A DNA stretch of 5,179 nt, taken from a virus. Lineage: Duplodnaviria > Heunggongvirae > Uroviricota > Caudoviricetes. Of this stretch, positions 3,269 through 4,030 are shown one piece after another; the first letter of the stretch is position 1; each line of letters opens with the position of its first letter. Made by a program: the position numbers and the translations under genes. The notes under the pieces were generated by a model. That model had not been told where the DNA came from. It did no database searches and saw only the letters and a list, made by a program, of their open reading frames with translations. The stretch lies in the IMG/VR virus record IMGVR_UViG_3300018486_000086; one strand, 5' to 3'.

Positions 3269-4030
3269 ATGCAGGAACTAACTGAAATGCCGATCACCTA
3301 TCCATACCCGAGAGAATCTTTTCCTGACTTTTTGAGGGAGTGTGGGTTCACCAATTTTTCCCACGAACAGCGTGAGACTTATGACTGCTATCGTTTAACG
3401 AATGGCGTAATTGTTAACCTTTACACCACCCGGACCATTCAGTTTCAAGGTAACCCTCAAGAACGTCCCAATGTTGAAACTGCAATAATGTCCCATTTAG
3501 GAACGCCCCCCACGGCAACACCACTAGCCGTAGAACAGCCATCTGAGCTTCCCAAAAAGATATTCATTGTTCACGGCCATGACCATACTGCAAAGGAACA
3601 ACTTGAGCTAATCCTTCATAAACTTGGATTACCAGACCATTTCATTTTGCAGAATACGGGAGGGACTGGACTCACCATTATTGAAGAGCTTGAACGTGAA
3701 ATTGGGCAAGGACAAACTGCTACCCGTTTCGGGATTGTTCTTTTGACACCTGATGATATGGGATACTCAAAGCGCGCCGGTGAAGCAGAAATCCAACCCC
3801 GCGCAAGACAGAACGTTGTACTCGAGATGGGTATGCTTCTTTCGTCCTTAGGGCGCAGCAATGTAGCAATCCTTCAGAAACAGCACCTAGAACAGCCTTC
3901 TGATGCTAACGGGATTTTGTATCTGAATTTCAACGACCATGTACGTGAAACAGTTCCTCGTCTAGTGCAACGGTTACAAAATTCTGGTTTCGAATTTACA
4001 CAAGCTCAAATAGCTAACGCTTCCTCGTAA
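3269..4030 (+). CDS. TIR-like domain protein (COG4271 / PF10137-type predicted nucleotide-binding protein) with an uncharacterised N-terminal domain of about 80 aa
   Basis: 253-aa ORF with AAGGA at 3255-3259, 9 nt before ATG 3269. The C-terminal region KIFIVHGHDHTAKEQLELILHKLGL...FGIVLLTPDDMGYSKRAGE...RARQNVVLEMGMLLSSLGRSNVAILQKQHLEQPSDANGILYLNF matches the remembered hallmark blocks of the TIR-like PF10137 family (FIVHGHD, LLTPDD, RARQNV-x-ExG, PSD). GC is visibly lower than in the flanking polymerase gene. Confidence 0.75.
   Translation: MQELTEMPITYPYPRESFPDFLRECGFTNFSHEQRETYDCYRLTNGVIVNLYTTRTIQFQGNPQERPNVETAIMSHLGTPPTATPLAVEQPSELPKKIFIVHGHDHTAKEQLELILHKLGLPDHFILQNTGGTGLTIIEELEREIGQGQTATRFGIVLLTPDDMGYSKRAGEAEIQPRARQNVVLEMGMLLSSLGRSNVAILQKQHLEQPSDANGILYLNFNDHVRETVPRLVQRLQNSGFEFTQAQIANASS

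Follow-up and report, generated by a model that had tools for sequence, protein, structure and literature searches.

A mobile TIR gene in a phage replication module is a candidate single-protein anti-phage NADase

We conclude that a 253-residue TIR protein encoded within a phage replication module is the product of a horizontally exchanged accessory gene, best explained as mobile phage cargo (a "moron") that occupies a variable slot in a temperate phage of E. coli. We further propose that this cassette probably encodes a self-sufficient, single-protein anti-phage device: an NADase that would act by abortive infection and be switched on when its sensor drives the protein to cluster. The gene lies in a 5,179-nucleotide stretch of tailed-phage DNA (Caudoviricetes), referred to here as the window. 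Sequence comparisons favour the abortive-infection reading on three counts: the protein matches the PADLOC family PDC-S35, its homologues occur in non-phage contexts, and its N-terminal domain recurs in dCTP-deaminase defence proteins.

The first-pass annotation had described an open reading frame for 253 aa at 3269-4030 on the plus strand, inserted between the polymerase and VRR-NUC genes. The frame is present exactly there, and the insertion is verified by an empty site. In the prophage of E. coli DEC5E, alignment places only 5 nt between the polymerase stop codon and the ATG equivalent to window position 4095; the cassette therefore spans 3205-4094, a length of 890 bp. It has a single gene, flanked on either side by about 64 nt of non-coding sequence, and a GC content of 44.2%. 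The slot and its contents are as follows.

1108..3204, plus strand: family-A DNA polymerase, bordering the slot on the left (Pfam DNA_pol_A, PHROG 17).
3205..4094, plus strand: accessory cassette, comprising leader, ribosome-binding site, TIR gene and hairpin (from the DEC5E alignment).
3256..3259, plus strand: Shine-Dalgarno sequence AGGA, 9 nt 5' of the ATG, as read from the sequence.
3269..4030, plus strand: TIR gene with an ATG start, encoding a two-domain protein of the PADLOC PDC-S35 family.
4053..4080, plus strand: hairpin and T-run, a terminator-like cassette end.
4095..4229, plus strand: short ANR-family ORF, bordering the slot on the right (NCBIfam ANR_neg_reg, E 3.5e-7).
4266..4460: small ORF between the ANR-family ORF and the VRR-NUC gene.
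4460..4744, plus strand: VRR-NUC / PD-(D/E)XK nuclease (PHROG 93, E 3.4e-31; Pfam VRR_NUC weak).

Both named neighbours are thus in place, with two small ORFs separating the TIR gene from the VRR-NUC gene. The ANR_neg_reg score of the first of these (30 bits) falls slightly below the 32-bit cut-off; the empty-site prophage shares the start of this ORF. A second small TIR-like ORF begins at 4760, downstream of the VRR-NUC gene. The TIR gene had also been said to have a lower GC content than its neighbours. This is clear against the polymerase (45.3%, GC3 39.8%, versus 53.7%, GC3 56.5%) but not against SSB (49.0%) or VRR-NUC (48.8%).

An AGGAA block upstream of it is invariant in all five alleles compared. 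As for the terminator of its own that had been ascribed to the gene, an 8-bp hairpin at 4053-4071 begins 22 nt past the TIR stop and is followed by TTTTTTATTT. The hairpin is energetically modest (-14.7 kcal/mol, z -1.2), and a single site of this kind within 1.5 kb does not exceed what shuffled sequences yield; however, divergent TIR alleles have hairpins of their own, of other sequence, at the same place. A promoter scan of the window found no sigma-70-like promoter upstream of the TIR gene, and a scan directly upstream of three other TIR alleles found no convincing one. The TUM1880, P0018 and Serratia alleles share an upstream element with weak resemblance to a promoter, TTGCTG-N17-TATTTT. 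A 9-nt insertion disrupts this element in the window allele, and because of this interruption we claim no promoter for the cassette. Because it points in the same direction as the early replication operon, the gene may be expressed only during lytic growth, not in the lysogen. A tRNA scan of the window found none, and thus no sign of an attachment-site tRNA.

The distribution of the gene supports the earlier suggestion that it is an accessory, horizontally exchanged element. The cassette allele is present in 37 of the 159 E. coli genomes that bear the replication module; the remainder have old divergent alleles, other cargo or an empty slot. Alleles whose synonymous divergence is saturated share one slot, and the window is about 96-97% identical to the divergent-allele prophages wherever the two match. 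In a Salmonella relative the TIR gene occupies another slot of the same module. Only 4 of 50,697 phage records contain the gene, and the protein matches PHROG 16442, a family of unknown function. Beyond phages, homologues with the same two-domain architecture, at least 50% identical, are found in an integrative element of Vibrio cholerae and in an integron-like array, where the gene adjoins an Mrr nuclease and toxin-antitoxin genes.

In relatives the slot also hosts nucleotide-modification cargo (DUF4406, methyltransferases), so that position alone is no indication of defence. The protein might instead serve phage replication as an enzyme of nucleotide metabolism or DNA modification. It would then act on (d)NMPs as an N-glycosidase or in the manner of a deoxyribosyltransferase, its N-terminal domain directing it to nucleic acid. 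We consider this very unlikely. Only about a quarter to a third of related prophages carry the gene, and the empty-site variant is intact; the gene moves between slots, and also into integrons and integrative elements that lack replication genes; and it retains four residues of an NAD+-binding site, as set out below.

The protein itself consists of two domains joined by a linker, with the following features.

3290..3502, plus strand: N-terminal TBP-like domain (aa 8-78), a predicted sensor.
3503..3553, plus strand: disordered linker (aa 79-95; pLDDT 33), whose length and sequence vary across the family.
3554..4027, plus strand: PF10137 TIR domain (aa 96-253), a predicted NADase effector.
3806..3826, plus strand: active-site motif R180-x-N182-VVL-E186, aligned to SfSTING R78, N80 and E84.
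3824-3826, plus strand: codon of the predicted catalytic glutamate E186, aligned to SfSTING E84.
3902..3904, plus strand: codon of D212, the SfSTING D110 equivalent by alignment.

Membership of the TIR-like family, proposed from the letters alone, is borne out by profile comparison. Pfam PF10137 (CAP12-PCTIR_TIR, STIR clan) matches residues 97-222 at E 2.9e-31, far beyond chance, with a score of 108.4 bits against a cut-off of 24.7 and with 118 of the 119 profile positions covered (1-118). The predicted structure of this part has the flavodoxin-like TIR fold, at moderate confidence (pLDDT 47-85 per block); a search of a library of predicted viral structures gave no convincing match (best TM-score 0.36). 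The active-site residues are those of SfSTING, the TIR-STING protein of CBASS Cap12 systems (PDB 7un8, 9lmq), in which R78, N80, E84 and D110 belong to the active site, with R78 and N80 in the NAD pocket, and D110 completes the active site of the neighbouring subunit in the filament (PMC9402430). The question of whether the conserved glutamate aligns with the catalytic one has a clear answer: E186, in VVLEMG, aligns with SfSTING E84 at the start of helix alpha-C, opposite VVFEFG in 7un8 and VHLEFG in 8jsj. R180, E186 and D212 do not vary among 58 homologues, and N182 shows conservation of at least 90%. The conservation of these residues suggests that the protein is an NAD+ glycohydrolase turned on by oligomerization.

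Despite this likeness, the protein fits none of the established TIR systems. It has neither the STING nor the SAVED receptor of Cap12; its predicted sensor is instead N-terminal, unrelated and TBP-like. The NCBIfam Cap12 equivalogs, whose cut-off is 450 bits, align to the TIR part alone and score just 34.8 and 30.5 bits. The Pycsar effector PycTIR (PDB 8jsj) belongs to the same TIR family and has the same R-x-N-V-x-L-E-x-G motif, but the PADLOC PycTIR match is partial (aa 132-234, E 1e-8) and the window protein lacks the cNMP-binding domain. No CD-NTase gene and no pyrimidine cyclase gene was found in the window or in the 15.5 kb of the near-identical phage 606R2, whose protein URC08726.1 has 99.6% identity to the window protein. 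We therefore rejected filing the protein under Cap12 or PycTIR, as it has neither the receptor domain nor the cyclase partner. Precedent comes from E. coli: its single-protein TIR systems, listed beside B. subtilis SpbK, give abortive-type protection that requires the TIR active site (PMC11350192). They differ from the window protein in being described as having "only a short TIR domain".

Filing under Thoeris ThsB was likewise rejected, because no effector is linked: the cassette has no effector gene, and the protein has no match to PF08937. A related possibility is that the protein is a ThsB-like signal generator whose product activates a separate effector, such as a SIR2 protein in a neighbouring slot or the second small TIR-like gene. 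Prophages TUM1880 and Rb-50 do encode, in the SSB-polymerase slot and alongside a TIR allele, a SIR2 protein that resembles ThsA (PDC-S25, E 3.9e-157; ThsA models, 5e-18), and the window has its TIR-like ORF from 4760 onwards. However, the SIR2 neighbour is confined to a few relatives and is absent from the window and from most cassette-bearing prophages; IAI1-type prophages have the cassette, yet the stretch that they share with the window stops short of the second TIR-like ORF; the ThsB family itself is not matched; and the characterized PF10137 TIRs are all NAD-depleting effectors. Of the readings discussed here, this is the one to which we assign the least probability.

The N-terminal domain, which the first-pass annotation could not assign but had suggested might be a sensor, behaves as a module, as expected of a predicted sensor. 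Its dN exceeds that of the TIR domain about fivefold, a contrast drawn from dN alone and not from a dN/dS ratio, synonymous sites being saturated between alleles; mean pairwise identity is 37% in this domain versus 74% in the TIR domain. It is also fused to other effectors. A subset of anti-phage dCTP deaminases (for example P0182 and P0255, about 610 aa; PADLOC dCTPase, E 7e-173) begins with the same domain (hhalign probability 99.2%, E 3.5e-19), although these proteins deplete dCTP through a P-loop and cytidine-deaminase module in place of the TIR NADase. This sharing implies a shared trigger. The domain occurs, in addition, fused to a multi-pass membrane protein and in tandem copies.

Structural prediction gives the domain an RNase H3-like fold, beta-alpha-beta4-alpha, that superposes on the N-terminal domain of RNase H3. 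Its closest structural neighbours are modules that bind RNA or hybrids: RNase H3, the METTL16 VCR and RnlA. Sequence similarity to the RNase H3 N-terminal domain and to the NTD and NRD of RnlA/LsoA is below significance (PDB profiles: RNase HIII, E 0.079, and LsoA, E 0.12; Pfam RnlA_toxin, E 0.035). One homologue (P0104) has a precomputed PF15935 hit. The net charge of the domain is about zero (-2 in the window protein, family median -0.5); it is not basic, and its charge thus lends no support to nucleic-acid binding. More tentatively, we raise the possibility that this RNase-H3-like domain of about 70 residues is a previously unrecognized portable infection sensor, mounted on at least three unrelated cell-stopping effectors (TIR NADase, dCTP deaminase and membrane protein), that might detect a nucleic-acid signature of phage replication or of transcriptional take-over, such as RNA:DNA hybrids or the loss of a guarding RNA.

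The last of these signals could also operate in the manner of a toxin-antitoxin pair. An unstable RNA, cellular or derived from the cassette, would occupy the TBP-like domain and keep the effector off; shut-off of transcription by a phage would remove the RNA and free the NADase, and likewise the dCTP-deaminase fusions. There is precedent in dCTP-deaminase defence, which according to a review is restrained by a small RNA and released once T7 gp5.7 blocks host RNA polymerase (PMC12409349), and both the sharing of the domain with dCTP deaminases and its RNA- or hybrid-binding fold neighbours are consistent with such a guard. Nevertheless, we regard it as unlikely. An Rfam search at a permissive threshold found no non-coding RNA in the window, and hence no sign of a partner RNA in the cassette, where only the short non-coding flanks are available; the domain is not basic; and the dCTP deaminases under small-RNA control may not be the ones that bear it.

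The 253-residue family is already catalogued as a defence candidate. PADLOC model PDLC05003 (PDC-S35) is matched end to end at E 1.3e-108 (aa 10-253 against positions 3-245 of 245). The likeness extends to organization, a single-gene unit exchanged as a unit, and we found no sequence difference that would set the protein apart; the other PDC-S35 models, 05004, 05005 and 05007, have only the TIR part in common with it and carry other N-termini. The PDC set comprises 145 candidates derived from genes that lie within BREX, DISARM and type I RM loci, and PDC-S35 would appear to count among those not yet validated. A literature search for PDC-S35, for DUF3378 with TIR and for COG4271 returned nothing useful: no paper naming PDC-S35 was found, nor a published functional test of the family. 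The DefensePredictor preprint makes no mention of TIR, and a systematic preprint on TIR signalling covers multi-gene Thoeris-type systems only.

TIR-fold enzymes act on NAD-derived nucleotides, and such an activity could in principle benefit the phage. As had been suggested earlier, the protein might be a counter-defence factor: a TIR-fold hydrolase made early that destroys or sequesters cADPR isomers, cyclic oligonucleotides or NAD-derived signals, and so permits escape from Thoeris, CBASS or Pycsar. In its favour, the gene lies inside the early replication operon, in the same orientation and with no detectable promoter of its own. This reading is nonetheless disfavoured, and we give it very little weight. 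The same architecture is found in bacterial, non-phage contexts of defence type; the catalogue that lists it draws on defence loci; its N-terminal domain is joined to dCTP deaminases and a membrane protein that are described as cell-killing effectors; the gene is nearly absent from sequenced phages; and the protein retains the residues of the Cap12 site that consumes NAD+. The defence-effector suggestion, by comparison, is favoured by the PDC-S35 match, by the integron-like and integrative contexts and by the shared sensor, but it is not proven.

Taken as an abortive-infection effector, the protein could work as follows. The N-terminal domain would bind a multivalent cue that arises during infection by another phage; the likeliest candidates would be duplex nucleic acid or structured RNA, by analogy with RNase H3, or alternatively a phage protein in oligomeric form. 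Binding would cluster the protein. The C-terminal domain is predicted to be active only once packed TIR to TIR, in the manner of TIR-STING, with D212 completing the E186 site of the neighbouring subunit. The clustered NAD+ glycohydrolase would then destroy NAD+, and the infected lysogen would no longer support growth of the phage.

Overall, these data probably provide a further example of temperate phages that carry defence cargo in hot spots of the replication module, and we advise that the TIR gene be annotated as a defence candidate and not as a replication gene. With 253 residues, two domains and a floppy linker, the protein is near the minimum size for an immune device that combines sensor and effector. 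A recent review lists the sensing mechanism of dCTP-deaminase defence as unknown, whereas a guarding small RNA is credited elsewhere (PMC12409349). Because the sensor is common to both kinds of protein, a simple NADase read-out could identify the trigger, and a trigger found for the TIR protein would extend to the dCTP-deaminase fusions. If the domain is indeed a portable sensor, identifying its ligand in the small TIR protein would also explain the triggering of a subset of nucleotide-depleting dCTP deaminases.

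The window is a 5.2 kb fragment of a temperate E. coli phage. An untrimmed Illumina TruSeq adapter remains at both ends, at 1-31 (ACTCTTTCCCTACACGACGCTCTTCCGATCT) and 5159-5179 (AGATCGGAAGAGCGTCGTGTA), so the window is an assembled contig whose true biological extent is 32-5158; its bases 1-32 are also 100% identical to unrelated phage records, which presumably carry the same adapter contamination. The induced E. coli prophages vB_EcoM-606R2, -689R2 and -611R5, and likewise prophages of complete E. coli chromosomes, are 99.5-99.6% identical to it over 93% of its length, a coverage exceeded in none of the complete E. 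coli genomes searched. The genes are arranged as follows.

277-825, Enc34-type single-strand-binding protein (SSB)
870-1085, reverse strand, small ORF
1108-3204, family-A DNA polymerase
3269-4030, TIR gene
4095-4229, short ANR-family ORF
4266-4460, 64-aa ORF
4460-4744, VRR-NUC nuclease
4760 onwards, low-GC ORF, incomplete at the window end

In phage 606R2 this block sits 3' of the repressor/Cro region and 5' of an SNF2 helicase, which marks it as an early replication module.

The suggestion in the first-pass annotation that the TIR gene is an insertion is borne out by an empty-site relative. In the E. coli DEC5E prophage, the polymerase stop codon is followed by 5 nt and then by the ANR start codon (window 4095), whereas the window has 890 bp at this point. 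The cassette is thus an insertion with exact boundaries, 3205-4094, in which a 64-nt leader bearing the ribosome-binding site AGGA precedes the TIR gene and an 8-bp hairpin plus T-run follows it. It occurs in only 37 of the 159 genomes that bear part of the module, among 5,426 complete E. coli genomes searched. The lower GC claimed for the gene holds against the polymerase gene (45.3% versus 53.7%), but the difference from the SSB and VRR-NUC genes is merely about 3.5 points. Similarly, the gene was said to have its own terminator; the hairpin is weak, although one lies just 3' of the stop codon in each allele compared, with a sequence that differs from allele to allele, and this supports a real cassette-end element. 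The TIR gene sits in an early operon without a recognisable promoter (a sequence scan of the window found none), and expression of the downstream replication genes would require read-through of its 3' hairpin.

The 253-aa ORF is real, and its assignment to the PF10137 TIR-like family is secure: residues 97-222 match the CAP12/Pycsar TIR profile over essentially its full length (E 2.9e-31). In the HMM alignment, R180, N182, E186 and D212 fall on R78, N80, E84 and D110 of SfSTING, the TIR-STING NADase of CBASS (the deposited chain numbering is the paper numbering +8), and the family conserves each of them fully or to at least 90%. In the SfSTING cryo-EM structure, R78 and N80 are ribose/phosphate ligands, E84 is the catalytic glutamate, and D110 of the partner TIR extends across and, in the filament, completes the active site (PMC9402430). 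The conserved glutamate of the window protein therefore does align with the TIR catalytic one. These four residues and the fold make it probable that the TIR domain is an NAD+ hydrolase in which D212 of a neighbouring subunit would complete the site in trans; such a protein would be inactive until clustered.

What might drive clustering is suggested by the N-terminal domain. Residues 8-78 are predicted to form a beta-alpha-beta4-alpha unit (pLDDT about 90). The top two sequence-profile matches in the PDB, RNase HIII (E 0.079) and LsoA (E 0.12), are below significance; all three share the motif Y-x-(T/R)-G-(S/T)-x-x-x-Q-G-K, and Pfam gives a weak RnlA_toxin match. The fold is the TBP-like one. 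The domain diverges fast: mean pairwise identity is 37%, compared with 74% for the TIR domain, and among prophage alleles in the same slot the values are 45% and 89%, with dN about 5 times higher in the TBP-like domain. A search of 1.84 billion representative proteins gave 917 matches to its profile. Among the 48 proteins of at least 150 aa in the best 150 of these, about 20 carry a TIR domain and 7 are anti-phage dCTP deaminases (PADLOC dCTPase, best E 7e-173); a 428-aa multi-pass membrane protein and a tandem duplication are also present. In the deaminase fusions the TBP-like domain forms the N-terminus, the dCTPase model match starting only at model position 142, and a profile-profile comparison with one of them gave 99.2% probability. 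Modular sensors in defence proteins typically show this pattern, one small domain placed ahead of unrelated effectors. Fast divergence and fusion to three unrelated cell-stopping effectors thus point to a sensor role, which the first reading, unable to assign the domain, had raised as one option, and we somewhat favor a model in which this domain, on its disordered linker, would drive clustering of the TIR domain.

The cassette occupies one of several variable slots. In 40 of the 159 module-bearing genomes, sampled at even spacing, the polymerase-VRR-NUC stretch held a TIR gene in 12, a DUF4406 gene in 14, a SAM methyltransferase in 4, and YfbU with a hypothetical protein in 1; the remainder had other genes or were empty. 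Two further slots are equally variable. Between SSB and polymerase, relatives have Nmad5, antirepressors, HNH endonucleases or a SIR2 protein; after VRR-NUC, cytosine methyltransferases or DUF6338. At least two further TIR-gene alleles are seen at the cassette's position in E. coli (TUM1880 and P0018) and in Serratia, and a Salmonella relative has the gene in the SSB-polymerase slot instead. Synonymous sites are saturated between alleles, yet the window is about 96-97% identical, wherever it matches, to prophages with divergent alleles; the cassette has therefore been exchanged by recombination, diverging out of step with the phage. The gene is unlikely to act in the phage's own nucleotide metabolism, since it is dispensable, moves among slots and replicons, and keeps its NAD-site residues.

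Several features of these slots deserve mention. The window's SSB-polymerase slot is occupied by the reverse-strand ORF at 870-1085 (71 aa, 38% GC; PHROG 3261, of unknown function), where a 630-bp reverse-strand gene stands in the closest phages and in every best E. coli match; this probably explains their 93% coverage. HNH/NUMOD4 homing-endonuclease genes in some related prophages (locus L015, 2323-2838 and 4414-4932; likewise locus L018) sit directly 5' of the polymerase gene, overlapping its start, and could drive the recombination that shuffles cargo around it. The TIR-gene leader, about 50 nt, is near-identical among the TUM1880 (L005 6041-6093), P0018 (L015 6945-7000) and Serratia (L019 5949-6000) alleles, in contrast to their saturated coding regions, and includes a weak promoter-like element, TTGCTG-N17-TATTTT. 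This could represent conserved regulatory sequence belonging to the cassette; the window leader (3205-3268) is different, with a 9-nt insertion.

Downstream of the cassette, the window's ANR-family gene encodes only 44 aa, compared with 72-74 aa in relatives, and its match (30 bits) is just short of the curated cut-off of 32 bits. The Cys/His-rich 64-aa ORF (PHROG 2358) follows as a separate gene, whereas in TUM1880 the ANR gene passes straight into the nuclease gene; the region looks like a rearranged or mosaic junction. Directly after VRR-NUC lies a second accessory ORF (4760-5158 in the window; GC 36%, GC3 28%), complete as a 163-aa gene at 13143-13634 of locus L001. Its product, too, resembles a TIR or deoxyribosyltransferase domain (PADLOC model PDLC00733 for a CBASS TIR effector, E 5e-7; PF10137 and Nuc_deoxyrib_tr matches weak), here standing alone with no sensor. 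This ORF and the TIR cassette appear independent, since IAI1-type prophages have the cassette while their match to the window ends short of the ORF. In the TUM1880 (L005 2407-3888) and Rb-50 prophages, a 493-aa SIR2-family protein with ThsA-like similarity, matching the PADLOC candidate PDC-S25 (E 3.9e-157), fills the SSB-polymerase slot, so that a SIR2 and a TIR candidate flank the polymerase gene. A Thoeris-like signalling role is nevertheless unlikely: no effector is linked, the SIR2 neighbor is confined to a few relatives, and the IAI1-type prophages have the cassette without a window match past VRR-NUC, where the second TIR-like ORF sits.

The whole protein matches PADLOC PDLC05003 (candidate PDC-S35) end to end (E 1.3e-108) and belongs to PHROG 16442, of unknown function. 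From its name, PDC-S35 would be one of the 145 PADLOC candidates, which were nominated because they lie within BREX, DISARM or type I RM loci. At least 2,703 proteins of about 250 aa belong to the family, which was found in only 4 of 50,697 phage records and gave no convincing counterpart among predicted viral structures. Outside prophages, an integrative element of Vibrio cholerae carries it together with an integrase and relaxase; elsewhere it adjoins an integron-type integrase, in an array that also has an Mrr-type nuclease and toxin-antitoxin genes. An 86-aa gene without a Pfam match (L006-L009 7716-7976) lies 25 nt 5' of the V. cholerae homologue, and in another context (L010, L011, L014) a gene of 70-74 aa is found directly 5' of the TIR gene; these could be a partner or regulator missing from the E. 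coli cassette. The first-pass annotation had also considered a phage counter-defence enzyme, which is unlikely, because the same protein is found in bacterial defence-type contexts and its TBP-like sensor also occurs joined to toxic effectors.

In kind, the gene is a further sensor-fused TIR effector. Of 32 E. coli TIR clusters screened in one study, 12 were active systems, among them single-protein ones that depend on their TIR active site, work through abortive infection and are triggered by portal or tail-fibre proteins (PMC11350192). The sequence is already in databases as a 'TIR domain-containing protein' and is listed among defence candidates. Judged by the searchable literature, two points appear to be new: placing the sensor in the RNase H3/RnlA TBP-like fold, and linking it to dCTP-deaminase defence proteins.

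The cue might be a nucleic-acid duplex or structured RNA made or lost during infection. This is a tentative and rather doubtful proposal, drawn by analogy from RNase H3 and from a review's statement that a small RNA guards dCTP-deaminase defence (PMC12409349). The TBP-like fold binds DNA-RNA hybrids in RNase H3, and anti-phage HEPN RNases (RNase LS family) carry it as a fusion (Anantharaman et al., 2013). The near-neutral charge of the domain counts mildly against nucleic-acid binding. The main alternative, for which other small TIR systems provide precedent, would be an oligomeric phage protein such as portal. We infer that the outcome would be abortive infection, shielding either the population of lysogens or the resident phage from competing phages. 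The more interesting, and testable, possibility is that the TBP-like sensor may be a shared infection detector.
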